Shown here one piece after another: positions 6,373 to 47,289 of a stretch of 64,000 nucleotides of DNA. The DNA is taken from NCBI RefSeq assembly GCF_003334355.1, contig NZ_QOWP01000008.1. One strand, given 5' to 3'. Made by a program: the position numbers and the translations under genes. The DNA is from Escherichia coli. GTDB lineage: Bacteria; Pseudomonadota; Gammaproteobacteria; Enterobacterales; Enterobacteriaceae. Every line of letters starts with the position of its first letter. Position 1 is the first letter of the stretch. The notes beneath the pieces are model-generated. The model was not told where the DNA came from. It was given only the letters and a program-made list of their open reading frames with translations, and did not search any database.

Positions 6373-7296
6373 TCACTCATCCCGCGCCGGACGATTTATT
6401 TTTCTGGCGCGGCGACGGGAATCCATTGAAATCAAAATTACCGATGACAGAATCAGCAGCGTTCCCAGCCAGTCCGGTAATGTGAACGTGATCCCCAGCA
6501 ACAGCAAAGAGAGTAGCGCGCTACTTAATGGTTCTGCACAGCTCAAAATGCTGGCTTTTGGACCGCCAATTAATTGTGCTCCTTTCAGGTACAGACTAAA
6601 TGTCAGGGACGTACCAATGACGATCAAATAAAAAAACGCCAAAATCAAACTGCCGTTAACGACAAAGTTTGTCCCTTGTCTGGCATAAAAAGGCAACAGA
6701 ATCAGACCGCCGATCAGCATACTCCAGCCGACGACAGACAACGTGCCATAGCGGGCAATTAGCGTTGAGGGATAGGTGGTATAGAATGCAGCAGCAAATG
6801 CCGAGGCAATGCCCCAGAACAACGCGGCAGGAGAGATCGATAATGACGTCGGATTACCGTGTGTCACCAATAAAAAAGTCCCGACCAGCGATGTCAAAAT
6901 AGCGCAGAAAACCAGAATGCCCGGGCGCGATTTACGCACCAGTGAGAACCAGGCGACGATAATCGTCGGTGAGAGGAATTGCAGCACCGTTGCCGTGGCT
7001 GCGTTCGATTTTTCGATGGTTAGCAAAAAAGTGAGCTGTACAGTTAGCGCGCCAACCACGGAAAAAATCAGCAGGCTAATGGCATCTTTATGATTGTTAA
7101 TAATAGAAAAGATTTTATCGCCATGAACAAATGACAGCGTCAGTAGAATCAAACCGGCGAATATCAAACGCGTCATAGTCAAAAACTGCGACGACATCTG
7201 GCTTTGCTCCATGATGTATTGCGCGCAGACCCCTGAACTTCCCCACAACACGGCGGCAATCAGAACGTTCAGCATCCCCTTTCTGGTGGAACCCAT
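6373..7296 (-). CDS. yicL: EamA/DMT family inner membrane transporter, 307 aa
   Basis: ORF track 307 aa, about 10 TM segments, position between nlpA and setC. Confidence 0.7.
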
Positions 7297-7406
7297 TTTT
7301 CCCTCTGCATACTGTTTTGTCGTTTATGTATGCAGGCATGATAGCAAAAATGGCGAGGATGGCTCTGTTTGCGCCACGCCGATTTTTCTTAGCCCAGACT
7401 GGTGAG

Positions 7407-8591
7407 CTAAATATCTTTAATAAACAGCAGGCAAATTATCGCAATACCCAACATCCCTATCGCCAGCCAGAACAACGCATGGTAGCTCCAGATTTCAACC
7501 ATAATTCCGTCAACAGAGCCGGCGATAATCCAGCCGACGCGTGAAGTATTTGCATATAACGTTGTCGCAGAGCCTATTTTTTCAGGCATCAGGTCCTGAA
7601 ATTAAAGCATGCCGATACCACAGAGAATACCAAGGAAGATGGCATTAAGAATTTGCAATTCCAGCTCAACCGCCGGAGTCGTCGCCATGAGTACGCTGGC
7701 GTAAAAACACATTCCACTCACGATAGCAATGAGCATTAATAGTCGCTTGCCAATACGTTTCATGTAATAGCCTGCGATTAACATCATCGGAATTTCCAGA
7801 CCGGCAGCGATACCAATCATTTCTCCAGCCAGTTTATCGGTTAGATGCAGTTCATCAATAATAAATAGCGGCATATTTATCATGTAGAGATTATTCGCCG
7901 CCCACATCATTGAACAGACCACAAAAAGTAGCCGCGTATCCCGCTTCCTGTGGGTGGAGGGTAAAATTTCTACGGGTTGGGTAACGACAGGAATATTTCT
8001 TTGTATTGATGGCAAAAACAACCAGACTATCAGCCCGCAAACAACAAATGCGATGGCAGCGGTGAGATACATCACTTTAAAACTAAATCCCATTGCCAGT
8101 TCATAAGCGAGCGGTGGCCCGATAACCCAGGCAAGCGAGATCTGAGCACGTAAAAATGTACTGAACATGACCGTCTCACGGCCTGTTCTGTCGGCGTGTT
8201 CACGGGCGAGGGCGAACATTTGCGGGTTTGCGGTGGAAGCAAAACTACTCAGAAGTACGCCCGTTGAGAGGAGAATGAAGTAGTTGCGATTCCACGCAAA
8301 AAGCGTGCAGGCCAGCACTCCAAATAAGCAACATAGCAGAATCAGTAATTTACGGTCGCCTTGTTTATCGGAGTGCCTTGCCAGAAATTGACTGACCAGA
8401 ATTCCCATAATAGCGCTACCGGTGAAGAAAAAACCTACCATTATAGGACGGGCTTTCAGTTCATCTGCGAGGAATATACTTAGGGTAGGAGTCTGAAGAG
8501 CGCCCGCAATACCCGTCAGAAAGGCGACAAGTAAAAATGCCGCGGCAGTGAGATCAAGTATTTTTGATGGAGTGGTAGCCGTTTTTTGCAT
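7407..8591 (-). pseudogene. setC: sugar efflux transporter SetC homolog interrupted by one in-frame TAA (codon 330 of a 394-codon frame)
   Basis: ORFs 7602..8591 (329 aa) and 7407..7589 (60 aa) are in the same frame, separated only by TAA (minus-strand 7602-7604) plus four codons (F Q D L); 329+1+4+60 = 394 codons, the length recalled for K-12 SetC. Confidence 0.6.
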
Positions 8592-9227
8592 TCTTCTGAA
8601 TCACCGGGCGAAAAAATATAACTGAGTTACAAATAAGTACCAGTCGAATGAGTATTGTATTAAGAATTTTTGAGTATCGCTGATACAACCAGAAAGCAAT
8701 GCTAGCGCAATATTATAGGGCCAGCAATTGAGATTATTAGCAAAAGCATGTTAAGAATTAATTACTGAATTTATATATTAATTATAGTAAGGCAATGAGC
8801 TATTTTTGATAGTAAAAATAAAACAAGTTGATTTGATATATTAAATGAACAAATTAATCTTGATGGCAGTCTGATTATTGGTGAAGTTTATAGTCAGTTT
8901 TTTTCGCCAGCGGTTAAAGAAATAGAATAGTCGTATAAAAAAGGGTGTTCTGGGGCGAGTAAAACAACATCTTCACCTTAATGGCGATACAGTTGGCTGA
9001 GAGTCAGCAGGGGGGCAAATCACCTGCAAATAAACACGGCGCATACTGGCGTGAATATCGCGGATGCGTTCGAGGACAGAAGAACCGACAGGCGGATTCT
9101 TCAGCCGCTCATCGTCCATCACAAAACCTTAGACCAGGTATTCCTGAAGCCGATTGAATATTGAGCAGTAGAAAATATCTGGATTGACAGTATTACAAGG
9201 GGTTGGAGAACGTCAGGAGAGGCATTT

Positions 9228-9322
9228 TGGCGGAAGATCACAGGAGTCGAACCTGCCCGGGACCGCTGGCGGCCCCAACTGGATTTGAAGTCCAGCCGCC
9301 TCACCGGAGACGACGATCTTCC
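9228..9322 (-). tRNA. selC: tRNA-Sec (selenocysteine tRNA), 95 nt including CCA
   Basis: Reverse complement of 9228-9322 reads GGAAGATCGTCGTCTCCGGTGAGGCGGCTGGACTTCAAATCCAGTTGGGGCCGCCAGCGGTCCCGGGCAGGTTCGACTCCTGTGATCTTCCGCCA, the recalled E. coli selC sequence. Confidence 0.92.
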
Positions 9323-9614
9323 GCGCCTCGATTGCTACATGGAGGCGGGGCGCATTATAGCTACTTCCTTGAGTTTCTACATCCCCCAGATCAGTTTTTT
9401 CCGCCTAATACACGCAGCGTATTATCACGAAAGCATTATAGTTCATATAAAACCCATATTTTACAATGATATATGAGCGGAATTAACGCTACCACGATCA
9501 CATAAAACAAGAATCATAAATTAATAACCAGATATCGGAATATTCGCTCTCACAGGGATGGTTTACAAAATGCGTTATCGGTCTCAGCACCCCTATAGCA
9601 TCAAGGAAAAGCAG

Positions 9615-10997
9615 ATGAAGAGTGAAGTGTTGTCCGTTAAAGAGAAAATTGGTTATGGCATGGGAGACGCCGCCAGCCACATTATTTTCGATAACGTAAT
9701 GTTATATATGATGTTCTTTTATACCGATATTTTTGGCATTCCTGCCGGTTTTGTCGGAACCATGTTTTTGGTCGCTCGTGCACTGGATGCGATTTCCGAT
9801 CCTTGCATGGGGTTGTTGGCCGATCGAACGCGCTCTCGCTGGGGTAAATTTCGTCCGTGGGTACTGTTTGGCGCACTGCCATTCGGGATCGTCTGTGTAC
9901 TGGCCTATAGCACGCCAGATCTCAGTATGAACGGCAAAATGATCTATGCAGCAATTACTTACACCCTACTTACCTTACTTTATACCGTCGTCAATATCCC
10001 TTACTGCGCATTGGGTGGTGTAATCACCAATGACCCGACTCAGCGTATCTCGCTGCAATCCTGGCGTTTTGTGCTGGCGACCGCGGGAGGCATGCTTTCT
10101 ACTGTTCTGATGATGCCACTGGTTAATTTAATTGGCGGTGATAATAAACCACTCGGTTTCCAGGGCGGTATCGCGGTCCTTTCCGTGGTGGCATTCATGA
10201 TGCTGGCATTTTGTTTCTTCACCACTAAAGAACGCGTTGAAGCACCACCTACAACAACGTCTATGCGGGAAGATTTACGTGATATCTGGCAAAACGACCA
10301 GTGGCGGATTGTCGGTTTACTAACCATTTTCAATATCCTGGCGGTGTGCGTACGCGGTGGGGCGATGATGTATTACGTCACATGGATTTTGGGCACGCCG
10401 GAAGTGTTTGTCGCTTTTCTCACCACTTATTGCGTGGGTAACCTGATTGGTTCCGCACTGGCAAAACCTCTGACCGACTGGAAATGTAAAGTCACTATCT
10501 TCTGGTGGACGAACGCCCTGCTGGCAGTGATTAGCCTCGCGATGTTCTTTGTTCCCATGCAGGCCAGCATCACTATGTTTGTCTTCATCTTCGTGATTGG
10601 TGTGTTGCATCAACTGGTGACACCTATCCAGTGGGTAATGATGTCCGATACCGTCGACTACGGCGAGTGGTGCAATGGTAAACGCCTGACCGGGATCAGT
10701 TTTGCTGGCACGCTGTTTGTGCTCAAACTGGGGTTGGCCTTCGGCGGCGCTCTTATCGGCTGGATGCTGGCTTATGGCGGATATGATGCGGCAGAAAAAG
10801 CGCAGAACAGCGCCACGATTAGCATCATTATTGCGCTATTCACGATTGTTCCGGCGATCTGTTATTTGCTGAGCGCGATTATCGCTAAACGCTACTACTC
10901 ACTCACGACGCACAATCTGAAAACCGTTATGGAACAGCTGGCTCAGGGTAAACGCCGTTGCCAGCAACAATTCACCTCTCAAGAAGTGCAGAACTAA
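9615..10997 (+). CDS. yicJ: GPH/MFS family sugar:cation symporter YicJ-like, 460 aa
   Basis: ORF 9558..10997; ATG 9615 (MKSEVLSVKEKIGYGMGD) gives 460 aa; melibiose-permease-like; forms operon with the downstream alpha-xylosidase. Confidence 0.75.
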   Translation: MKSEVLSVKEKIGYGMGDAASHIIFDNVMLYMMFFYTDIFGIPAGFVGTMFLVARALDAISDPCMGLLADRTRSRWGKFRPWVLFGALPFGIVCVLAYSTPDLSMNGKMIYAAITYTLLTLLYTVVNIPYCALGGVITNDPTQRISLQSWRFVLATAGGMLSTVLMMPLVNLIGGDNKPLGFQGGIAVLSVVAFMMLAFCFFTTKERVEAPPTTTSMREDLRDIWQNDQWRIVGLLTIFNILAVCVRGGAMMYYVTWILGTPEVFVAFLTTYCVGNLIGSALAKPLTDWKCKVTIFWWTNALLAVISLAMFFVPMQASITMFVFIFVIGVLHQLVTPIQWVMMSDTVDYGEWCNGKRLTGISFAGTLFVLKLGLAFGGALIGWMLAYGGYDAAEKAQNSATISIIIALFTIVPAICYLLSAIIAKRYYSLTTHNLKTVMEQLAQGKRRCQQQFTSQEVQN

Positions 10998-26961: not shown

Positions 26962-27786
26962 CTATTTCTTCTCTGTAATTTTTACACTGTTTTCCAACTG
27001 CTTGATGCTGACCTGCGGGGTCGGCAACTCCTCAGGCATGGTTCCGCCAAGTTCCTGAATGGTTTGCCTCACCTTGCGACCCACGTCAAAGTGTGTGGTG
27101 TTTGCTTGCTGTTTTGAATTCACGCCATCCCGCTTGAGTTTTTCTTCTGTTTGGGTAGCTCGAAAGAGATTAGCCGCCAGTTCTGTTGAACCCATATGAT
27201 CCAGGATCTTCTGACTCTTTTTCAGCCCCTTCCGCTGATGGATGGCTTTCTGATCTAATCCACCATACAGCCCCCGGTAACCATGATTCTGAAATATGGC
27301 GAAATCGATAGCTGTCGCTACCCCAGCTTGCTGCGCTGCCTCAACTAATTGTTTGTTATGTTCTTTCAATTCATTTCTCAGAAAAAGACGCTTTTCGTCT
27401 TCACGAAGTTGCCTGAAAGCTTCATCGTCAGCCAGCTCCTGCCGTCGGGTCTGGATAGCAAAATAAGTTTGCCCTGCCGCAATAACCGGTTTCGCAGGGT
27501 CGCCGTTTTGTACTACCAGGTAACAGGCATAGCGGGAGAGATGAACATCTTCAAGTTCTCGTTGAGCCCCTGAACCTAATACAACCATTTTGGTGGTTTC
27601 AACGAAATGGTCAGATGCAGCTTGATTGCTGGCTTCGCACGCTTGAGTCGCGCGGGCAAGTACCTTTTGAAAATTGCGCCAGTCCCGATAATCCAGTAAC
27701 GGTGCCAATTCTCTCGCTGACCAAAATTCTTGCCCTTCAGTGCCATAATGCCGTATTTCTTCAAAAGGTTGATGATGTTCGTTCAT
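26962..27786 (-). CDS. dinD: DNA-damage-inducible protein D, 274 aa
   Basis: ORF 26962..27798; start MNEHHQPFEE; LexA box directly upstream. Confidence 0.7.
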   Translation of the reverse strand: MNEHHQPFEEIRHYGTEGQEFWSARELAPLLDYRDWRNFQKVLARATQACEASNQAASDHFVETTKMVVLGSGAQRELEDVHLSRYACYLVVQNGDPAKPVIAAGQTYFAIQTRRQELADDEAFRQLREDEKRLFLRNELKEHNKQLVEAAQQAGVATAIDFAIFQNHGYRGLYGGLDQKAIHQRKGLKKSQKILDHMGSTELAANLFRATQTEEKLKRDGVNSKQQANTTHFDVGRKVRQTIQELGGTMPEELPTPQVSIKQLENSVKITEKK

Positions 27787-27831
27787 TGCCCACTCCATGT
27801 GATATCGATTGCAAAGAAAGTAAATCTGTAA

Positions 27832-27847
27832 CTGTATTTATATACAG
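27832..27847. promoter_or_regulatory. LexA (SOS) box CTGTATTTATATACAG upstream of dinD
   Basis: exact CTGT-N8-ACAG palindrome with AT-rich centre, about 45 bp upstream of the dinD start on the minus strand. Confidence 0.7.
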
Positions 27848-27939
27848 TTGTGAGTATCTCACGTTCTCAGTGTGCTGGGCAAAAAGACATCGCAAAATCT
27901 GGAACAGGCACGCAAAACAGAATTGAAAGTTGCGGAGAA

Positions 27940-27970
27940 GAAAAATGCCGCTCTGTTTGAGTGGGCGGCA
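27940..27970 (-). terminator. rho-independent terminator downstream of yicC
   Basis: minus strand reads atgccgcc-loop-ggcggcat followed by TTTTT, about 40 nt after the yicC stop. Confidence 0.55.
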
Positions 27971-28007
27971 TTTGTGAAGGCTGAAAAGTAAGAATTGGCG
28001 TTACGAG

Positions 28008-35243: not shown

Positions 35244-37008
<1,765 letters not shown>

Positions 37009-37320
37009 AGTAAATAGCTGACTTATGGATGTGCTGGGGATTCTATGTATTTAGCTGTGGCTTTACCATTACTTTTCCCGTTTTTGACTTAAATAGCAAT
37101 TTACCCGCCAATTCTTGCTGAACATCTATACTTTTTTTGTATTTTATGCGATTCATTGATTTCTGCTGTACGTGCAGGAAGGAATCGCAGAGCAACAGTG
37201 AAAGAATATGGTTGCTAATGATTATATTTGATTGATTTCTTTATTGAAAATCAACAATGTGCTTAAAAATCATTCGGGTCGGATTGCCGCGAAAGAAGTG
37301 ATACACTAGCGCGTCAATAT

Positions 37321-37370
37321 CAGTGCGGTATCAGTATTCAGGTAGCTGTTGAGCCTGGGGCGGTAGCGTG
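37321..37370 (+). promoter_or_regulatory. JUMPstart element with ops site (GGCGGTAGCGTG at 37359-37370), RfaH-dependent antitermination signal for the waaQ operon
   Basis: cagtgcggtatcagtattcaggtagctgttgagcctggggcggtagcgtg matches the JUMPstart/ops consensus, about 50 bp upstream of waaQ. Confidence 0.75.
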
Positions 37371-37419
37371 CTTTTTCTGCTTCACCTTAATCGGATAATC
37401 TCAACAAAAAGAGTTACTT

Positions 37420-38478
37420 GTGGATAAGCCATTTCGAAGAATTTTGCTCATTAAGATGCGTTTTCATGGGGATATGTTATTAACTACTCCCGTCATTAGT
37501 TCGCTGAAAAAAAATTACCCTGACGCAAAAATCGATGTGCTGCTTTATCAGGACACCATCCCGATCCTGTCTGAAAATCCAGAGATTAACGCGCTCTACG
37601 GCATAAAAAATAAAAAAGCAAAAGCCTCAGAAAAAATTGCCAACTTTTTTCATCTCATCAAGGTATTACGTGCCAATAAGTATGACCTTATCGTCAATCT
37701 TACCGATCAATGGATGGTTGCTATACTGGTTCGCTTATTAAATGCCCGTGTGAAAATTTCCCAGGATTATCATCATCGGCAGTCTGCTTTTTGGCGTAAA
37801 AGTTTCACCCATTTGGTGCCGTTGCAGGGTGGAAATGTGGTGGAAAGTAACTTATCCGTGCTGATACCATTGGGACTTGATTCGTTGGTGAAGCAGACAA
37901 CCATGAGTTACCCGCCTGCAAGCTGGAAACGTATGCGTCGCGAACTTGATCACGCTGGTGTTGGACAAAATTATGTGGTTATCCAACCTACGGCGCGGCA
38001 AATCTTCAAATGCTGGGACAACGCCAAGTTTTCCGCTGTGATTGATGCCTTACATGCTCGTGGTTATGAAGTCGTTCTGACGTCCGGCCCAGATAAAGAC
38101 GATCTGGCCTGCGTCAATGAAATTGCGCAGGGATGCCAGACGCCACCAGTAACGGCGCTGGCTGGAAAGGTGACCTTCCCGGAACTTGGTGCGTTAATCG
38201 ATCATGCGCAGCTGTTTATTGGCGTTGATTCCGCACCGGCGCATATTGCCGCTGCAGTTAATACGCCGCTGATATCGCTGTTTGGTGCGACAGACCATAT
38301 TTTCTGGCGTCCCTGGTCAAATAACATGATTCAATTCTGGGCGGGAGATTACCGGGAAATGCCAACGCGCGATCAGCGTGACCGAAATGAGATGTATCTT
38401 TCGGTTATTCCGGCGGCAGATGTCATTGCTGCTGTCGATAAATTACTGCCCTCCTCCACGACAGGTACGTCGTTATGA
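37420..38478 (+). CDS. waaQ: LPS heptosyltransferase III (GT9)
   Basis: ORF track 352 aa; start codon in the track is GTG at 37420 (exact start uncertain); RILLIKMRFHGDMLLTTPVISSLKK heptosyltransferase N-terminus. Confidence 0.8.
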   Translation: MDKPFRRILLIKMRFHGDMLLTTPVISSLKKNYPDAKIDVLLYQDTIPILSENPEINALYGIKNKKAKASEKIANFFHLIKVLRANKYDLIVNLTDQWMVAILVRLLNARVKISQDYHHRQSAFWRKSFTHLVPLQGGNVVESNLSVLIPLGLDSLVKQTTMSYPPASWKRMRRELDHAGVGQNYVVIQPTARQIFKCWDNAKFSAVIDALHARGYEVVLTSGPDKDDLACVNEIAQGCQTPPVTALAGKVTFPELGALIDHAQLFIGVDSAPAHIAAAVNTPLISLFGATDHIFWRPWSNNMIQFWAGDYREMPTRDQRDRNEMYLSVIPAADVIAAVDKLLPSSTTGTSL

Positions 38479-39599
38479 TCGTTGCTTTTTGTTTATATAA
38501 ATATTTTCCCTTTGGCGGTTTGCAGCGCGATTTTATGCGTATTGCTCAGACAGTCGCCGCCCGAGGTCATCATGTTCGGGTTTATACCCAGTCGTGGGAA
38601 GGCGAATGCCCTGATGTATTTGAACTGATCAAAGTACCGGTTAAATCGCATACCAATCACGGGCGCAATGCGGAGTATTTTGCCTGGGTGCAAAAACATT
38701 TACGCGAACATCCCGTCGATAAAGTCGTTGGATTCAACAAAATGCCGGGGCTGGACGTTTATTATGCCGCTGATGTTTGTTATGCCGAGAAAGTAGCGCA
38801 GGAGAAAGGCTTTTTCTATCGCCTGACGTCACGTTATCGCCATTATGCCGCCTTTGAGCGGGCAACCTTCGAACAGGGTAAGCCGACACAGCTGCTGATG
38901 CTGACAGATAAGCAAATCGCCGATTTCCAGAAACATTATCAGACTGAAGCGGAGCGTTTTCATATTCTGCCACCGGGGATTTATCCTGATCGTAAATATA
39001 GCCAGCAGCCAGCCAATAGCCGTGAAATCTTCCGTAAGAAGAATGGAATAACCGAACAACAATATTTATTGTTGCAGGTCGGTTCAGACTTCACGCGTAA
39101 AGGTGTCGATCGTTCCATTGAAGCACTTGCTTCGTTACCGGATTCGCTGCGCCACAACACATTGCTATATGTTGTTGGGCAGGATAAACCGCGAAAATTT
39201 GAGGCACTGGCAGAAAAACGCGGCGTGCGCAGTAATGTTCACTTCTTCTCGGGGCGCAACGATGTCTCGGAATTAATGGCGGCGGCGGATTTATTACTGC
39301 ATCCTGCCTACCAGGAAGCGGCGGGAATTGTGCTGCTGGAAGCGATTACTGCAGGATTACCGGTACTAACAACAGCCGTTTGTGGCTATGCGCATTATAT
39401 TGTCGAGGCCAATTGCGGCGAGGCTATTGTTGAGCCATTCCGCCAGGAAACATTGAATGAGATTTTACGCAAAGCGTTAACGCAATCTTCATTGCGCCAG
39501 GCCTGGGCGGAAAATGCGCGACATTATGCTGATACACAAGATTTATACAGTCTGCCAGAGAAAGCGGCGGATATCATAACGGGTGGTCTGGATGGTTGA
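38475..39599 (+). CDS. waaG: LPS core alpha-1,3-glucosyltransferase I (GT4), 374 aa
   Basis: 374 aa; [24 protein letters not shown]; 4-bp overlap with the waaQ stop. Confidence 0.85.
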
Positions 39600-40389
39600 A
39601 CTTAAAGAGCCGTTTGCCACGTTATGGCGCGGCAAAGATCCTTTTGAGGAAGTTAAAACCTTGCAGGGTGAGGTATTTCGTGAACTGGAAACTCGCCGTA
39701 CTCTGCGCTTTGAAATGGCGGGCAAAAGCTATTTTCTCAAATGGCATCGCGGCACGACCCTGAAAGAGATAATCAAAAATTTACTCTCATTGCGGATGCC
39801 AGTATTAGGCGCTGACCGCGAATGGAATGCGATTCATCGACTGCGGGATGTCGGCGTTGATACTATGTATGGGGTGGCATTTGGCGAAAAAGGCATGAAT
39901 CCGCTGACCAGAACTTCATTTATTATTACCGAAGATCTGACACCAACCATAAGTCTGGAAGATTACTGTGCTGACTGGGCGACTAACCCTCCAGATGTTC
40001 GCGTAAAGCGTATGCTTATTAAGCGTGTCGCGACGATGGTGCGCGATATGCATGCTGCGGGCATTAACCACCGTGACTGTTATATCTGTCATTTCCTGCT
40101 GCACTTGCCTTTTTCCGGTAAGGAAGAGGAGTTAAAAATTTCGGTAATTGACCTGCACCGGGCGCAGCTTCGCACGCGCGTTCCACGTCGTTGGCGGGAT
40201 AAAGATCTTATTGGGCTTTATTTTTCTTCGATGAATATCGACCTGACTCAGCGGGATATCTGGCGGTTTATGAAAGTGTATTTTGCCGCCCCGCTTAAAG
40301 ACATTCTCAAGCAGGAACAAGGACTGCTGTCGCAAGCAGAAGCAAAAGCCACAAAAATCAGGGAAAGAACGATTCGAAAATCGTTGTAA
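39592..40389 (+). CDS. waaP: LPS core heptose(I) kinase, 265 aa
   Basis: ORF 39583..40389; start [21 protein letters not shown]; kinase-like HRDCYICH motif. Confidence 0.85.
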
Positions 40390-40404
40390 TTTCCGGAGAG
40401 AAAT

Positions 40405-41421
40405 ATGAGTGCCCACTATTTTAATCCACAAGAGATGATCACTAAGACAATCATCTTCGATGAAAGGCCAGCGGCGTCAGTGGCATCATCATTCCATGTT
40501 GCTTATGGCATTGATAAAAACTTTCTTTTTGGTTGTGGTGTTTCAATCACGTCAGTTTTGTTACATAACAACGACGTGAGTTTTGTTTTCCACGTTTTTA
40601 TTGATGATATCCCTGAAGCCGATATCCAGCGTTTAGCCCAATTGGCGAAAAGCTATCGTACCTGTATCCAGATCCATCTGGTAAATTGTGAACGGCTTAA
40701 GGCATTACCGACGACCAAAAATTGGTCTATTGCCATGTATTTCCGTTTTGTAATTGCAGATTACTTTATTGATCAACAAGATAAGGTTCTTTACCTGGAT
40801 GCTGATATCGCCTGTCAGGGAAACTTAAAGCCGCTGATAACAATGGATCTTGCCAATAACATTGCTGCTGTTGTTACTGAACGCGATGCTAACTGGTGGT
40901 CGTTACGGGGTCAAAGTCTGCAGTGTAATGAACTTGAAAAGGGTTACTTTAATTCAGGTGTCCTGTTAATTAATACACTAGCGTGGGCGCAGGAGTCCGT
41001 TTCTGCTAAAGCGATGTCGATGCTTGCTGATAAAGCCGTCGTTTCCCGTTTAACCTATATGGATCAAGATATACTTAATCTTATCCTGTCAGGGAAAGTT
41101 AAATTCATTGATGCTAAATACAATACGCAATTTAGTTTAAATTATGAATTAAAAAAATCATTTGTTTGTCCAATTAATGATGAAACCGTATTAATTCATT
41201 ATGTCGGCCCGACAAAACCCTGGCATTACTGGGCCGGTTATCCAAGTGCGCGACCTTTTATCAAAGCCAAAGAGGCATCGCCCTGGAAAAATGAACCGTT
41301 AATGCGGCCAGTTAACTCAAACTATGCTCGTTATTGCGCCAAGCATAATTTTAAACAAAATAAACCAATTAACGGGATAATGAATTATATTTATTATTTT
41401 TATTTAAAGATAATAAAATGA
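40405..41421 (+). CDS. waaO: family-8 LPS alpha-1,3-glucosyltransferase (WaaO/WaaI type), 338 aa
   Basis: GT8 signatures (YGIDKNFLFG, LYLDADI, NSGVLLIN); first outer-core gene after waaP; symbol assigned by position in an R1/R4-type order. Confidence 0.65.
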   Translation: MSAHYFNPQEMITKTIIFDERPAASVASSFHVAYGIDKNFLFGCGVSITSVLLHNNDVSFVFHVFIDDIPEADIQRLAQLAKSYRTCIQIHLVNCERLKALPTTKNWSIAMYFRFVIADYFIDQQDKVLYLDADIACQGNLKPLITMDLANNIAAVVTERDANWWSLRGQSLQCNELEKGYFNSGVLLINTLAWAQESVSAKAMSMLADKAVVSRLTYMDQDILNLILSGKVKFIDAKYNTQFSLNYELKKSFVCPINDETVLIHYVGPTKPWHYWAGYPSARPFIKAKEASPWKNEPLMRPVNSNYARYCAKHNFKQNKPINGIMNYIYYFYLKIIK

Positions 41422-41437
41422 AATTGAGAAAAGTTAA

Positions 41438-42433
41438 ATGAATGAATTTATAAAAGAACGGTTTTCGTATTTAGCAGATAATAAAAAAGAAAACGCCCCA
41501 GAGCTAAATGTTTCCTACGGTATCGATAAGAATTTTTTGTATGGTGCTGGCGTTTCAATTTCTTCCGTTTTGATTAATAATTCAGATATTAATTTTGTCT
41601 TTCATGTTTTCACTGATTATGTGGATGATGATTATTTAAAGTCATTTAATGAAACAGCAAAACAATTTAATACCTCAATTATTGTATATTTAATTGACCC
41701 CAAATACTTTGCTGATCTGCCGACGTCACAGTTTTGGTCGTACGCGACATACTTCAGGGTATTGTCTTTTGAATATCTGAGTGAAAGTATTTCCACACTG
41801 CTGTATCTGGATGCCGATGTTGTTTGTAAAGGAAGCCTGAAACCTCTCACAGAAATTATATTTAAAGATGAGTTTGCTGCGGTCATTCCTGACAATGATA
41901 GTACGCAGGCGGCATGTGCAAAACGCCTCAACATTCCCGAAATGAATGGACGTTATTTCAATGCAGGCGTTATCTATGTCAATCTTAAAAAATGGCATGA
42001 AGCAAATTTGACACCGTATTTACTCAAGCTTTTACGAGGGGAAACTAAATATGGCTCTCTTAAATATTTAGATCAGGATGCGTTGAATATCGCATTTAAT
42101 ATGAATAATATCTACCTCGGGAAGGATTTTGATACTATTTATACCCTGAAAAATGAACTTCATGATCGTAGTCATCGAAAGTTTCAGCAAACCATTACCG
42201 ATAAAACAGTATTGATTCACTATACAGGGATAACTAAACCATGGCATAGCTGGGCTGGATATCCGTCTGCATCATACTTTAATATCGCGCGTGAACAATC
42301 TCCCTGGAAGAAATATCCTCTTAAAGAGGCGCGGACTGTTGCAGAAATGCAGAAACAATATAAGCATCTGTTTGCCCATGGTGAGTATATAAAAGGCATA
42401 ACTTCATTAATTAAGTACAAGCTTAAGAAATAA
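41438..42433 (+). CDS. waaT: family-8 LPS alpha-1,2-glycosyltransferase (WaaT/WaaJ type), 331 aa
   Basis: GT8 signatures (YGIDKNFLYG, LYLDADVVCKGSL, NAGVIYVN); paralogous to the ORF at 43161; symbol by position. Confidence 0.55.
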   Translation: MNEFIKERFSYLADNKKENAPELNVSYGIDKNFLYGAGVSISSVLINNSDINFVFHVFTDYVDDDYLKSFNETAKQFNTSIIVYLIDPKYFADLPTSQFWSYATYFRVLSFEYLSESISTLLYLDADVVCKGSLKPLTEIIFKDEFAAVIPDNDSTQAACAKRLNIPEMNGRYFNAGVIYVNLKKWHEANLTPYLLKLLRGETKYGSLKYLDQDALNIAFNMNNIYLGKDFDTIYTLKNELHDRSHRKFQQTITDKTVLIHYTGITKPWHSWAGYPSASYFNIAREQSPWKKYPLKEARTVAEMQKQYKHLFAHGEYIKGITSLIKYKLKK

Positions 42434-42442
42434 ATTACTCTT

Positions 42443-43135
42443 ATGATTACAAGTATACGTTATCGCGGCTTCTCATTTTATTACAAAGATAATGATAATA
42501 AATATAAAGAAATCTTTGATGAAATACTGGCCTATAATTTTAAAACAGTAAAAGTATTACGTAATATTGATGATACCAAAGTATCGTTGATTGATACGAA
42601 ATATGGTCGCTATGTTTTTAAAGTCTTTGCTCCGAAAACGAAAAGGAATGAACGTTTTTTAAAATCTTTTGTAAAAGGTGACTACTATCAGAATTTGATC
42701 GTTGAAACCGATCGTGTCAGAAGTGCAGGTCTTACTTTTCCTAATGATTTTTATTTTCTGGCTGAGCGTAAAATTTTCAACTATGCCAGTGTTTTTATCA
42801 TGCTTATCGAGTATGTCGAGGGCGTAGAGCTCAATGATATGCCGATTATTCCAGAAAATGTTAAAGCAGAAATTAAGGCTTCAATGGAAAAATTGCATGC
42901 CTTAAATATGCTATCGGGCGACCCACACCGGGGTAATTTTATCGTTAGTAAAGATGGTGTCAGGATAATTGACCTATCCGGTAAAAGCTGTACGGCAGAG
43001 CGTAAAGCTCGTGATCGTCTGGCCATGGAACGTCACCTGGGTATTGCCAACGAAATAAAAGATTATGGCTACTATTCAGTAATCTACAGAACCAAACTAC
43101 GCAAATTTATTAAAAAATTAAAAGGCAAAGCGTAA
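42443..43135 (+). CDS. waaY: LPS core heptose(II) kinase WaaY, 230 aa
   Basis: MITSIRYRGFSFYYKDNDNKYKEIFDEILAYNFKTVKVLRN; kinase-like, AT-rich. Confidence 0.75.
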   Translation: MITSIRYRGFSFYYKDNDNKYKEIFDEILAYNFKTVKVLRNIDDTKVSLIDTKYGRYVFKVFAPKTKRNERFLKSFVKGDYYQNLIVETDRVRSAGLTFPNDFYFLAERKIFNYASVFIMLIEYVEGVELNDMPIIPENVKAEIKASMEKLHALNMLSGDPHRGNFIVSKDGVRIIDLSGKSCTAERKARDRLAMERHLGIANEIKDYGYYSVIYRTKLRKFIKKLKGKA

Positions 43136-43160
43136 ACCACACAGTCAAAACGGAACCAAC

Positions 43161-44189
43161 ATGGATTTATTAGCTGAGAGTATTTCTGAAGTCGCTGTCT
43201 CTGGGGAAATTGCTAACACCGATCGTGTGTTAAATATCGCTTACGGTATTGACCGTAACTTTTTATTTGGTGCGGCAGTATCTATGCAATCAGTTGTTAT
43301 GCATAACCCGGACCTTGCGGTTAAGTTTCATCTCTTTACCGACTACATTGATGAAGATTATCTACAACGTGTTAATGCTTTTACCAGCAAAAATGCTAAC
43401 GTTGAAGTAAGAATTTATAAAGTCTCCAATGCCTTTATTGATATCTTCCCCAGCCTGAAACAGTGGTCTTATGCAACATTCTTCCGTTTAGTTGCGTTCC
43501 AGTATCTGAGTGAAACTATTGAAAATCTGTTATATATCGATGCTGATGTCATCTGTAAAGGCTCATTAGCTGGATTGCTTGATATTAATTTTGATGGGGA
43601 TAAGTTTGCAGCTGTTATTAAAGATGTGCCTTTTATGCAGGAAAAACCAGCGAAGCGTCTGGCTATAGAGGGACTTCCAGGGAATTATTTCAACGCCGGT
43701 GTAGTATATCTGCAGCTTGAAGCATGGGCGAAAAATGATTTTATGAATAAAGCCATTGCTATGCTGGCAAGTGACCCGCAGCACACGAAGTATAAATGCC
43801 TTGATCAGGATATTTTAAATATTCTGTTTTTTGGTCATTGTATTTTTATTAGCGGCGATTATGATTGCTTTTATGGCATCGATTATGAGTTAAAAAATAA
43901 AAGCGATGAAGATTATAAAAAGACCATTACCGATGATACTAAGCTGATTCATTATGTTGGCGTAACGAAGCCCTGGAACGACTGGACGAATTATCCCTGC
44001 CAGAACTATTTTAATGAGGCTTATCAGGCTTCTTGCTGGAATGATGTGGCGTTTATTCCAGCCACGAATGAAAAGCAGTATCAAGTGAAATCCAGACATT
44101 TGAAAAGAAATGGTAATATTGCATCTTCATTTTACTATTTCATGCTCTATTATAGTAAGAAAATAGCGCGTAAGCATTTTTCCAAATAA
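43161..44189 (+). CDS. waaW: family-8 LPS alpha-1,2-glycosyltransferase (WaaW/WaaR type), 342 aa
   Basis: GT8 signatures (YGIDRNFLFG, LYIDADVICKGSL, NAGVVYLQ); clear paralog of 41438..42433; symbol by position. Confidence 0.55.
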   Translation: MDLLAESISEVAVSGEIANTDRVLNIAYGIDRNFLFGAAVSMQSVVMHNPDLAVKFHLFTDYIDEDYLQRVNAFTSKNANVEVRIYKVSNAFIDIFPSLKQWSYATFFRLVAFQYLSETIENLLYIDADVICKGSLAGLLDINFDGDKFAAVIKDVPFMQEKPAKRLAIEGLPGNYFNAGVVYLQLEAWAKNDFMNKAIAMLASDPQHTKYKCLDQDILNILFFGHCIFISGDYDCFYGIDYELKNKSDEDYKKTITDDTKLIHYVGVTKPWNDWTNYPCQNYFNEAYQASCWNDVAFIPATNEKQYQVKSRHLKRNGNIASSFYYFMLYYSKKIARKHFSK

Positions 44190-44220
44190 TTATTAAGATT
44201 AATCATCCAGAGATTTTTTA

Positions 44221-44994
44221 ATGAACTTGCCCATTTATATTGTCTCACTTAAAAGAGATATTGAGCGAAGAAATAAAATAAATGATGTTTTTCATCGATT
44301 AAATATTAATTTTGATTTTTTTGATGCCATAGATGCTAAAGACCCTCAAAATAAAGAAATTATTGATAAAATGAGATTAAGTGGTGTCGGCGCAGAAATG
44401 ACTGATGGAGAAATTGCTTGTACATTAAGTCATCAACTTATATATCAGGATATGATAGATAAAAATATAGAATGGGCAGTCATTCTCGAGGATGATGTTA
44501 TCGTCAATGAGAAATTTAAAAAATTTCTGCAATATTTTAATCTTTCTGAAAAAGACAAGTTAAAACATAATAATTTGTATTTGCTTGGAGGACAGAAAGG
44601 ATTACATGATTATCCGGTATTGGGGCAAAGCCTTTTTAGTAAAGTTAAGGTAAGTACTTGTACTTTTCGGCGTGTTAATTTCAATAAAAATAAAATTCGG
44701 CGTACATGTTCATATTTGATGAATAAAGATATGGCACAAAAGTTGCTCAAATTGACAAAGGATTATGGCACCTATCGAGCTGATAGCTGGAAGTTAATGC
44801 ATCAACATAATATTATAAAAGAGTTTTATTTAGACGAAATAATATTACATCCTATTTTAAATGAGTTTAATAGTCATCTTGAAAGTGAAAGGCTATTAAC
44901 ATCGGAAAAAAAACAACCTAGAACAAGGCTTCAGAAAAGAATGAAGTTTATACGCTCCTGGATAAAGGTGGCTTTTTTTTCTCTTTTGAAATGA
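44221..44994 (+). CDS. family-25 LPS beta-glycosyltransferase (Lic2A/LgtB-like); candidate WaaX-type beta-1,4-galactosyltransferase, 257 aa
   Basis: N-terminal IYIVSLKRDIERR...FDFFDAIDAKDP and downstream ILEDDVIV resemble GT25 (Lic2A/LgtB) proteins; sits at the waaV/waaX position immediately before waaL. Confidence 0.55.
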   Translation: MNLPIYIVSLKRDIERRNKINDVFHRLNINFDFFDAIDAKDPQNKEIIDKMRLSGVGAEMTDGEIACTLSHQLIYQDMIDKNIEWAVILEDDVIVNEKFKKFLQYFNLSEKDKLKHNNLYLLGGQKGLHDYPVLGQSLFSKVKVSTCTFRRVNFNKNKIRRTCSYLMNKDMAQKLLKLTKDYGTYRADSWKLMHQHNIIKEFYLDEIILHPILNEFNSHLESERLLTSEKKQPRTRLQKRMKFIRSWIKVAFFSLLK

Positions 44995-45028
44995 GATTGT
45001 TAATTTCAATTTGTTGTGAGATATTAAC

Positions 45029-46282
45029 GTGGAAGTAAAAATTGAGCAATTTCGAAATAATAGCTGTAATTTTATTTTTTTATTGTATTTAATCGGTTTG
45101 TTGTTTGTGCCAATTGATCTTAATATCACCACTAAAATAATTAATGCGACAGGTGCATTTTCTCTTTTCTTATTAATTGTAAATAAAAAGCATAATTATA
45201 ATAAAAATGTCATTATATTAATTCTTGGTTTACTTCTTTTGGGTGCAATGAACCTGATATGGTATGAATTTTATAAAACAGAAGATGTAGTATATAGAAA
45301 TGCTTATCGAGGCTACCTTGAGTCTGGAAAACTATTAGTATTTAGCTCGTTGACATTTTTATTACTAAGTAAAAATAAATTCAGGCAAAATGAAAAACTA
45401 CATTTTATTTCAGCCATCTTAGTTCAAATAATCATGCTATGTAGAGCATATTATCAAGGGATATATTTGCATGCAGACCGCATTCCCCTCTCCGCCATGA
45501 ATGGGAATATTGGTCAAATGGGGGCAGCGACTATTGCGGCTTATGTGATTACATTCACCACTTTATATTCTTCAATTGTATTCATCAAAATGCAATCGAA
45601 ATATAAATGGTTTCTATTTTATGCTAACTTTGCTTTAAGTTTTGCTGCAGTAACAATGACTGGCACTAGGGCGGCGATTTTTACATTCCCACTAATGATT
45701 ATGGTTATTTTATTAATACAATATCGTAATCAGAGAGTGTTTTTATTTAAAGGATTGAGTGGTTTCTTTTTTTTATTTCTAGTATGCGGATTAATATTCA
45801 ATAAGGGAATTGAAAGACGGATCAACGCATTACAAACAGATGTGATTTCCTATACTACAAAAAATAATAGCAATTCATCAGTAGGTGCGCGGTTTGCTAT
45901 GGTTAATGCAGGTATTAAGGGTAGTCCCGATACTTTAGGATGGCAATCCCTTGAAGAGCGAGCCAAAAAGATAAAAGCTTTAAGTTTAGATAATAATATT
46001 TATAATAGTGTTCTTCCTTTTCTGGATGTACATATGCATAACGAAATTGTGGAATCTCTTTCCACGAAAGGAAAAATTGGTCTTCTTGTTCTTATTATGT
46101 TCTATGTTGCAATGATCTATTACTGTATCCGGGAGAAAAAATATATACTCTTGGTTTTCCCTGCTTCTATTATGTTATTTGGCATTAGTGATGTCATTAC
46201 ACATGCTAAACCAATACCGGCATCGTGGATTGTGTGCCTCTTCCTGTCTACATCGTTTTTGAGTAAAAAAGAACCACAATAA
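45029..46282 (+). CDS. waaL: O-antigen ligase, 417 aa polytopic membrane protein
   Basis: About 10-12 predicted TM helices, very AT-rich, last gene of the waaQ-direction operon; GTG start in track (exact start uncertain). Confidence 0.65.
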   Translation: MEVKIEQFRNNSCNFIFLLYLIGLLFVPIDLNITTKIINATGAFSLFLLIVNKKHNYNKNVIILILGLLLLGAMNLIWYEFYKTEDVVYRNAYRGYLESGKLLVFSSLTFLLLSKNKFRQNEKLHFISAILVQIIMLCRAYYQGIYLHADRIPLSAMNGNIGQMGAATIAAYVITFTTLYSSIVFIKMQSKYKWFLFYANFALSFAAVTMTGTRAAIFTFPLMIMVILLIQYRNQRVFLFKGLSGFFFLFLVCGLIFNKGIERRINALQTDVISYTTKNNSNSSVGARFAMVNAGIKGSPDTLGWQSLEERAKKIKALSLDNNIYNSVLPFLDVHMHNEIVESLSTKGKIGLLVLIMFYVAMIYYCIREKKYILLVFPASIMLFGISDVITHAKPIPASWIVCLFLSTSFLSKKEPQ

Positions 46283-46297
46283 TAAAAGCGTTGACTA

Positions 46298-46333
46298 AGT
46301 AAGTGGGTATAATACCCACTTACTATTTATTAA
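46298..46333. terminator. bidirectional terminator between convergent waaL and waaC
   Basis: perfect 13-bp inverted repeat agtaagtgggtat / atacccacttact (46298-46325) followed by T-rich tract. Confidence 0.6.
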
Positions 46334-47289
46334 ATCAATGTGATTTTTTTATAAACAGCCGCTGCTTCTAAATTATTTAAATTCATTAGCGGAGCCCTAC
46401 AAACCATCTGATTCTTCCCATACCCGCCAATTAATCCAGGGTCGGTAGGTCCATAAACCGTGATATTGGGTCTATCCAGTGCCGCCGTTAAATGGCTTAA
46501 CCCCGTATCCACCGACACTACAAATTTAGCCCCGGCCAGCACGCGGGCAACGCCTTCCAGACTCATCTTAGGCAATACTTCAACATAAGCAAATCCTTCC
46601 GCCAGTCGTTTCGCCCGTTCTTCCTCATGCGGCGCGCCCCACGGAAGTTTAATCCGTATTCCTGAATCAGCCAGTAAACCAATCAATTCTCGCCAGTGTT
46701 CTTCCGGCCAGTGTTTATCATCACGGGTCGTCGCATGAAGAAATACGGCATATTCGCCAGCATCTGTAGGCAGGTTCGTCAGAAAATGCTGTGCGATAGC
46801 ATAATCGCCCTGGGTTTGCGGTTTGCTATAGCCCAAACTTTTGGCAAACAGTTCGCGGGTGCGTTCTACGGCGTGCTGCTGTTTTGCAATATGATGCTTA
46901 CGATTGTAAAACAGACTGGCTAAAGGTTCGCGAGCGGTTTTCCAGTCCATGCCATGCTTTACGCCATGCGCCAGACGCGTCACCAGCGCCGCGCTTTTTA
47001 CCAGCCCCTGAGCGTCGATAACTGCGTCATAGTTCTCTGCTTGTAGCGCTTCACGAAACGCTTTGCGTTCCGCTTTTATGGGGGCCGAGAACCAGGCTTT
47101 ACGCCAGCGACGTATTGCCACAGGAATAACTCGCTCAACGGCAGCGTGCCAGGAAGGAATCTGTGCGAACCCTTCTTCCACCACCCAGTCAAACTTAATC
47201 CCTGGGATTGCCTGCTGGGCATCAGTGAGTGCGGGCAACGTATGGAGAACATCGCCCATCGACGATGTTTTAACGATCAAAACCCGCAT
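46330..47289 (-). CDS. waaC: LPS heptosyltransferase I, 319 aa
   Basis: MRVLIVKTSSMGDVLHTLPALTDA; GT9. Confidence 0.9.
   Translation of the reverse strand: MRVLIVKTSSMGDVLHTLPALTDAQQAIPGIKFDWVVEEGFAQIPSWHAAVERVIPVAIRRWRKAWFSAPIKAERKAFREALQAENYDAVIDAQGLVKSAALVTRLAHGVKHGMDWKTAREPLASLFYNRKHHIAKQQHAVERTRELFAKSLGYSKPQTQGDYAIAQHFLTNLPTDAGEYAVFLHATTRDDKHWPEEHWRELIGLLADSGIRIKLPWGAPHEEERAKRLAEGFAYVEVLPKMSLEGVARVLAGAKFVVSVDTGLSHLTAALDRPNITVYGPTDPGLIGGYGKNQMVCRAPLMNLNNLEAAAVYKKITLI

Follow-up and report, generated by a model that had tools for sequence, protein, structure and literature searches.

No island at selC in an Escherichia coli genome: a K-12-type selC-setC interval with a mosaic, probably scarred spacer

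No island is integrated at selC in this genome. The DNA that we analysed is one stretch of 64,000 nucleotides (hereafter, the window), and we consider it very probable that the part between selC and setC is an ordinary interval of the K-12 type, free of islands, whose spacer is a scarred mosaic. The spacer would be non-coding and made up of a short trailer, a scrap of rhuM and about 400 bp of AT-rich DNA. The selC gene is a textbook island hotspot in E. coli; other sites used by islands of the LEE type are pheU and pheV, which lie outside the reach of this window.

The sole tRNA gene that ARAGORN reports in the 64 kb is a tRNA-Sec with the anticodon UCA, at 9228..9322 on the minus strand. The Rfam model RF01852 scores 83.8 bits on it (the gathering score is 47), and positions 9228-9322 show no mismatch to the characterised selC of K-12 (NC_000913.3). 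Judging by its sequence, it is an intact and presumably functional tRNA-Sec gene. Its CCA end is at 9228 and the start codon of setC at 8591, so that the spacer occupies 8592-9227 and is 636 bp long. On the other side, a gap of 292 bp separates selC from the backbone gene yicJ (9615..10997, plus strand, with the ATG at 9615; PGAP annotation of the closely matching locus L001 and the list of open reading frames). The earlier note put these distances at about 640 and about 290 bp, and the exact values agree. Past the variable slot between selC and yicL, the first backbone gene is yicL itself (6373..7296, minus strand, by annotation).

The last 24 nt of selC (9228..9251), which read TGGCGGAAGATCACAGGAGTCGAA on the plus strand, would be the chromosomal attachment site for islands with a tyrosine integrase, i.e., an unoccupied attB core. 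The attachment sites of LEE, PAI-I 536, SHI-2, AGI-3, the EAEC 042 island selC-A and P4-like elements likewise consist of the 3'-terminal 21-24 nt of selC; for AGI-3 the attachment at the selC 3' end is stated in PMC2704930. The core is present in a single copy in the window. A 29-mer of the selC 3' end, searched with up to 3 mismatches on both strands of the 64 kb, has no copy besides selC, and an ungapped search on both strands with 21-, 24- and 39-mers at up to 30% mismatch gives no second genuine copy. A 21-mer inside yicI with 6 mismatches was considered as such a copy and rejected, being at chance level. Within 7200-9700 we found short repeat families at chance level only.

The window aligns with K-12 MG1655 over 7300-9700 without a gap and with 7 substitutions; this covers the alignment proposed in the earlier note as a check. 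Two substitutions separate the same region from strain 81EVA, and over 8400-9700 that strain and the window do not differ. At a larger scale, positions 1-27540 are collinear with K-12 3845543-3818006 with one gap only. The window contains 9.2 kb on the island side of selC, and since the K-12 flank continues unbroken up to the core, an insertion there is excluded. A tblastn search with the integrase of the selC island of strain 571 gave a best E-value of 1.1 in the spacer and 2.2 in the window, and the PGAP annotation of locus L001 contains no integrase. In other words, neither an adjoining integrase, nor a direct repeat at a far boundary, nor extra DNA relative to the reference was found.

Since selC is intact, the collinearity with K-12 is gap-free, the attachment core is single and no integrase was detected, we regard the site as unoccupied. 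The earlier note described selC as intact and free of islands, and it named a duplicated selC 3' end, an integrase fragment or DNA in excess of commensal references as findings that would speak against this; no such finding was made. The observation is thereby confirmed, and the interpretation attached to it is partly supported. The interval is arranged as in the K-12 reference and is nothing new in kind: MG1655 has the same order selC-yicT-setC (b3658, b4653, b3659), an identical selC and the same 636-bp spacer without an indel, from which the spacer of the window differs by two substitutions (8741 and 8766).

Other parts of the window depart further from K-12. The LPS core (waa) cluster at approximately 37000-46370 is 64-79% identical to K-12 or unmatched, i.e., it is of a non-K-12 core type; the region 38000-47000 is covered to at least 80% in 691 of 5,426 genomes only, and the lowest-GC stretches of the window are found in the waa region. 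Around dinD, positions 27001-28000 are 88% identical to K-12 and the neighbouring kilobases 97-99%; megablast against K-12 leaves 27541-27753 unaligned.

The comparison with occupied sites clarifies where an island would have been expected. In strain 571, selC is followed by a tyrosine integrase, approximately 37 kb of cargo, a perfect 24-bp repeat, and then the same rhuM fragment, spacer and setC as in the window. The repeat, TGGCGGAAGATCACAGGAGTCGAA, flanks the island of that strain as a perfect direct repeat and is identical to window positions 9228-9251. A similar order is described for the selC island of EAEC 042, where a 21-bp repeat is followed by the “backbone genes” setC, yicL and nlpA (PMC7058095). 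Occupied strains thus carry their island between selC and a spacer of the type seen here, whereas the window has no integrase, no duplicated core and no island.

The empty arrangement is common. A contiguous, K-12-like, empty site is present in 2,468 of 5,426 complete E. coli genomes (45%). The spacer with the rhuM fragment is found in 3,619 of the 5,426 (67%) at 94-100% identity over its full length; in approximately 1,150 genomes (3,619 minus 2,468) it is present but parted from selC. A further 844 of the 5,426, with ST131 among them, are matched only through a full-length rhuM that is 75% identical, and the remaining genomes, O157:H7 and O55:H7 included, lack the spacer. The empty state is the most frequent single state and says little on pathotype. 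The suggestion of the earlier note that the absence of an island is informative is therefore weak, with 45% of the complete genomes equally empty.

The statement that the spacer holds no other island cargo did not stand. Positions 8988..9149 (minus strand) contain an internal fragment of a rhuM-family gene, 162 bp long, which corresponds to residues 121-185 of the 345 residues of RhuM and retains 54 of 345 codons. As a reference we used the intact 345-residue copy adjoining selC in strain AVS0710, which matches the Pfam family PF13310 at 5.7e-118. A tblastn search of an intact E. coli RhuM against window 9149-8988 (minus strand) gives an E-value of 5e-20 at 63% identity, and the translation of the fragment matches PF13310 with an i-E of 4.1e-10 over model positions 52-98 of 252. 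Compared with intact RhuM, the fragment lacks 8 codons at one place and 3 at another, and a stop codon interrupts its frame once. By profile it belongs to the RhuM family (PF13310), yet it is not a complete functional member. Its nucleotide identity is 75% to the E. coli rhuM and 71% to one Salmonella rhuM.

This fragment is already annotated publicly, and hence known: K-12 has the pseudogene yicT (b4653) at this position, and PGAP labels it in the spacer of 81EVA as a partial “RhuM family protein” with an internal stop and with the N- and C-terminus missing. Our literature search found no paper that names yicT together with “pseudogene” and “Escherichia coli”. According to PMC3680342, rhuM is a gene of the Salmonella island SPI-3, which is located at selC; the rhuM of SPI-3 belongs to the same PF13310 family and has the same neighbourhood directly 3' of selC as the fragment in the window. 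In ST131-type E. coli, probably of phylogroup B2, an intact rhuM (WP_001280586.1, “virulence RhuM family protein”) adjoins selC. Because the fragment is homologous to rhuM, a gene of the selC-borne SPI-3, we infer that it may be a scar left by an earlier selC-associated element. The likeness to SPI-3 is confined to this gene: by the annotation of the closely matching and K-12 loci, sugR, misL, marT and mgtCB are not between selC and yicL, where the rhuM fragment and setC are the only annotated contents.

The 51 bp directly after selC (9177..9227), which we call the trailer, match almost perfectly the arm that adjoins the integrase in the O157:H7 selC island. Against the selC-integrase interval of O157:H7 strain TR01 (L097 5001-5051), they give a 36-bp match at 97% as well as an alignment over the 51 bp. 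In the O157:H7 genome examined this is the sole match to the spacer, whose remaining K-12-type sequence is missing there. The 15 bp of the trailer nearest selC are common to both other configurations compared (L002 and L006), with the homology starting at 9213. The trailer would thus resemble the arm next to the integrase in selC islands; the likeness could instead mean that the attP of an island has an extended homology to the flank of the ancestral attB. The 27 bp between the trailer and the rhuM fragment (9150..9176) resemble the rhuM locus L002 neither as DNA nor as protein, and they align with neither of the integrase-side arms in L006 and L097.

The remaining 396 bp of the spacer (8592..8987), upstream of setC, are AT-rich and non-coding. 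The GC content is 38% in the spacer, 31.6% in 8592-8987, 26.5% in 8700-8899 and 19.8% in 8740-8860, with a window average of 50%; 8700-8899 falls within the lowest 1% of 200-bp windows of the 64 kb. The description of 8700-8900 as strongly AT-rich in the earlier note is accurate. Two origins or roles were offered there for this stretch, a remnant of past insertions and the promoter region of setC. Regarding the former, a remnant of a past insertion does exist in the spacer, but the recognisable one is the rhuM fragment at 8988-9149, which has 52% GC and lies beside the AT-rich part. The AT-rich DNA has no relatives in genuine phage or plasmid records.

A phage origin and a plasmid origin of the AT-rich DNA were both considered and rejected. 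The full-length phage matches are contaminated “Campylobacter phage” records: GenBank MG065686.1 and MG065691.1 (“Campylobacter phage A18a” and “A11a”, 174 kb) contain all 636 bp of the spacer at 99.7%, and these records most likely reflect contamination with E. coli DNA or misassembly. The plasmid matches that cover the spacer are mislabelled chromosomes, and, among the matches listed, the others fall on setB.

The promoter proposal is plausible. Genomic SELEX placed binding peaks of the sigma-S and sigma-H RNA polymerase in the selC-setC spacer, at U00096.2 3834856 and 3834954 (PMC5493296). With our own offset of +1977 to U00096.3 and then onto the window, these peaks of a low-resolution in-vitro tiling array correspond to approximately 8711 and 8613, i.e., 120 and 22 bp upstream of the setC start. 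Nucleotide diversity (pi) was estimated in 11 sequences, namely the window, K-12, strain 571 and eight genomes chosen for their divergent spacers. In this sample the 150 bp nearest setC (8592-8741) are the least variable part of the spacer, with pi of 0.007-0.016, as against 0.04-0.05 at 8892-8991 and 0.026 in the AT-rich spacer overall; the first and second codon positions of setC have 0.004 and 0.001. The setC-proximal part is therefore somewhat conserved, which fits a promoter or leader. Against the proposal, a consensus sigma-70 scan gave no -35/-10 site on the setC (minus) strand and fewer sites than in shuffled sequences. Taking together the published in-vitro polymerase binding and the lower diversity, we presume that the setC-proximal AT-rich DNA probably holds a candidate setC promoter and 5' leader, and it would serve setC in this capacity. 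In the E. coli strain EC0880B (NZ_OX460335.1), an IS1 is inserted within the selC-setC spacer, and so the spacer tolerates disruption.

The gene downstream, setC (7407..8591, minus strand), encodes a paralogue of the sugar efflux transporters and is interrupted in the window by a nonsense codon at 7602-7604. A change of TAT to TAA at base 7602 turns Tyr330 into a stop, and 65 of 394 residues are lost (translation compared with K-12). The 40-mer at 7593-7632 has an exact match in none of the 3,744 complete E. coli genomes that carry setC, all of which are one base off. The gene has a further private change at 7437 (Met to Ile) and three more substitutions relative to K-12. The stop codon may be real, as a pseudogenisation peculiar to this strain, or it may stem from a sequencing error.

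The setC gene is present in 3,744 of the 5,426 complete E. coli genomes (approximately 69%). Its closest paralogue, SetB (b2170), has 71% amino-acid identity over the full length and belongs to the same family of sugar efflux transporters. In a scan of 100,044 species with one representative genome each, 341 relatives of SetC were obtained and the best 80 loci kept; all of these are SetB orthologues, 81-99% identical to K-12 SetB and at most 72% to SetC. No SetC orthologue outside E. coli is thus found among the best 80 of the 341 relatives in these 100,044 species representatives, and none of 8 SetB-orthologue loci checked has a tRNA-Sec within 5 kb. SetB orthologues occur in about 80 enterobacterial species; by contrast, setC lies in the variable selC-yicL slot of E. 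coli. From these sequence comparisons, setC appears to be restricted to approximately 69% of E. coli.

The same slot has other contents in other genomes. In AVS0710, the one genome examined among those matched only through rhuM, the intact gene (345 codons) has selC on one side and a degenerate copy of the selC 3' end on the other, and it forms a one-gene islet of 1.2 kb without an integrase. The degenerate repeat, GAGGCATTTTGGCG-ATCACAGGAGTCG, carries a 4-nt deletion (L002 5258-5285). Past it, a hypothetical gene of 165 codons takes the place of setC and is followed by yicL; there is no setC. In L002, which is a setC-less locus of the B2 type, sequence similar to the window returns only at window positions 7300-7325, immediately upstream of yicL. 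In Salmonella, PMC3641672 places mgtC next to yicL at the far end of SPI-3. Since setC is patchy in E. coli and SPI-3 fills the same slot, we treat the interval from selC to yicL as a variable slot that holds setC. An evenly spaced sample of 40 rows from 4,530 matching records contained no transitional forms, i.e., a longer rhuM beside setC.

Together, the rhuM scrap, the AT-rich DNA and setC would accordingly form an accessory block in the selC-yicL slot, carried by about two thirds of E. coli, and this block may be a decayed residue of an old insertion that lacks an integrase. Gene content and distribution make this the most likely origin of the block, as it is found in two thirds of E. coli and was not found in other species representatives. 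The rhuM scrap would have been left by an earlier selC-associated element, and later islands would insert between the old block and selC. No direct repeat was found on the yicL side of the proposed insertion at up to 30% mismatch, so that gene content and distribution are what speaks for an island origin. A broader proposal is that the “empty” selC site of K-12 is itself derived: the 1.9-kb block from selC to yicL, with the trailer included, would be the decayed stump of an old selC islet, setC would not be a backbone gene but a paralogue of setB, confined to E. coli and gained by horizontal transfer, and later islands would be stacked on top. To this proposal as a whole we give a little better than an even chance.

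The opposite view is that the site is a pristine attB that was never occupied, and that the spacer is the native promoter region of setC, free of mobile-element DNA. The collinearity with K-12 and the absence of a detected integrase or direct repeat agree with it, as does the SELEX signal for a promoter. It is nonetheless improbable: the rhuM fragment (a PF13310 match, with a tblastn E-value as low as given above) contradicts the lack of cargo, about one E. coli genome in three lacks setC and the spacer, neither of which turned up in the representatives of other species, and the 51-bp trailer matches an island arm.

Another reading is that the rhuM piece or the AT-rich DNA has been co-opted, as a micro-protein from the 49-codon ORF with a GTG start (8973-9122), as a small RNA, or as an H-NS-bound silencer of setC; H-NS commonly targets very AT-rich DNA. 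The fragment is indeed kept in the 3,619 genomes mentioned at 94-100% identity, and the ORF is present; no small ORF was found in the spacer besides the one derived from rhuM. However, the diversity of the fragment equals that of synonymous sites (pi of 0.030, compared with 0.033 at the third codon positions of setC, in the 11 sequences), and the frame-breaking lesions differ by strain: the PGAP notes report an internal stop in some strains, a frameshift in one, and neither in others. As pi matches the synonymous sites and the lesion notes differ between strains, the fragment seems to drift like neutral DNA, although this is indicative only. Rfam at E of at most 1 finds no family in the spacer, selC alone being found, and a scan of the spacer for promoters and terminators gave nothing better than shuffled sequences. 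We consider such a co-option highly improbable.

Excision mediated by an integrase restores the tRNA gene that bears an island scarlessly. The least probable explanation is that such a precise excision followed a recent occupation and that the empty state is secondary: the approximately 1,150 genomes with the spacer parted from selC imply that gain and loss at selC are frequent, but the sequence cannot tell an excised site from one never occupied, and the closest relatives (81EVA, PSS-12 and ST540-type strains) are also contiguous, so that no recent loss is needed.

We return to the reading of the interval as an island-free site of the K-12 type with a scarred spacer. Its overall weight is that of a modest evolutionary footnote, and it involves no new mechanism. 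It records an island-free selC in this strain, as in K-12 and in nearly half of complete E. coli genomes, and it illustrates that “unoccupied” reference sites can still hold scars of earlier elements (here, yicT/rhuM). If setC and the AT-rich DNA are indeed an old insertion at selC, this would refine the description of the selC-yicL hotspot in pan-genome work and would explain the variable presence of setC.
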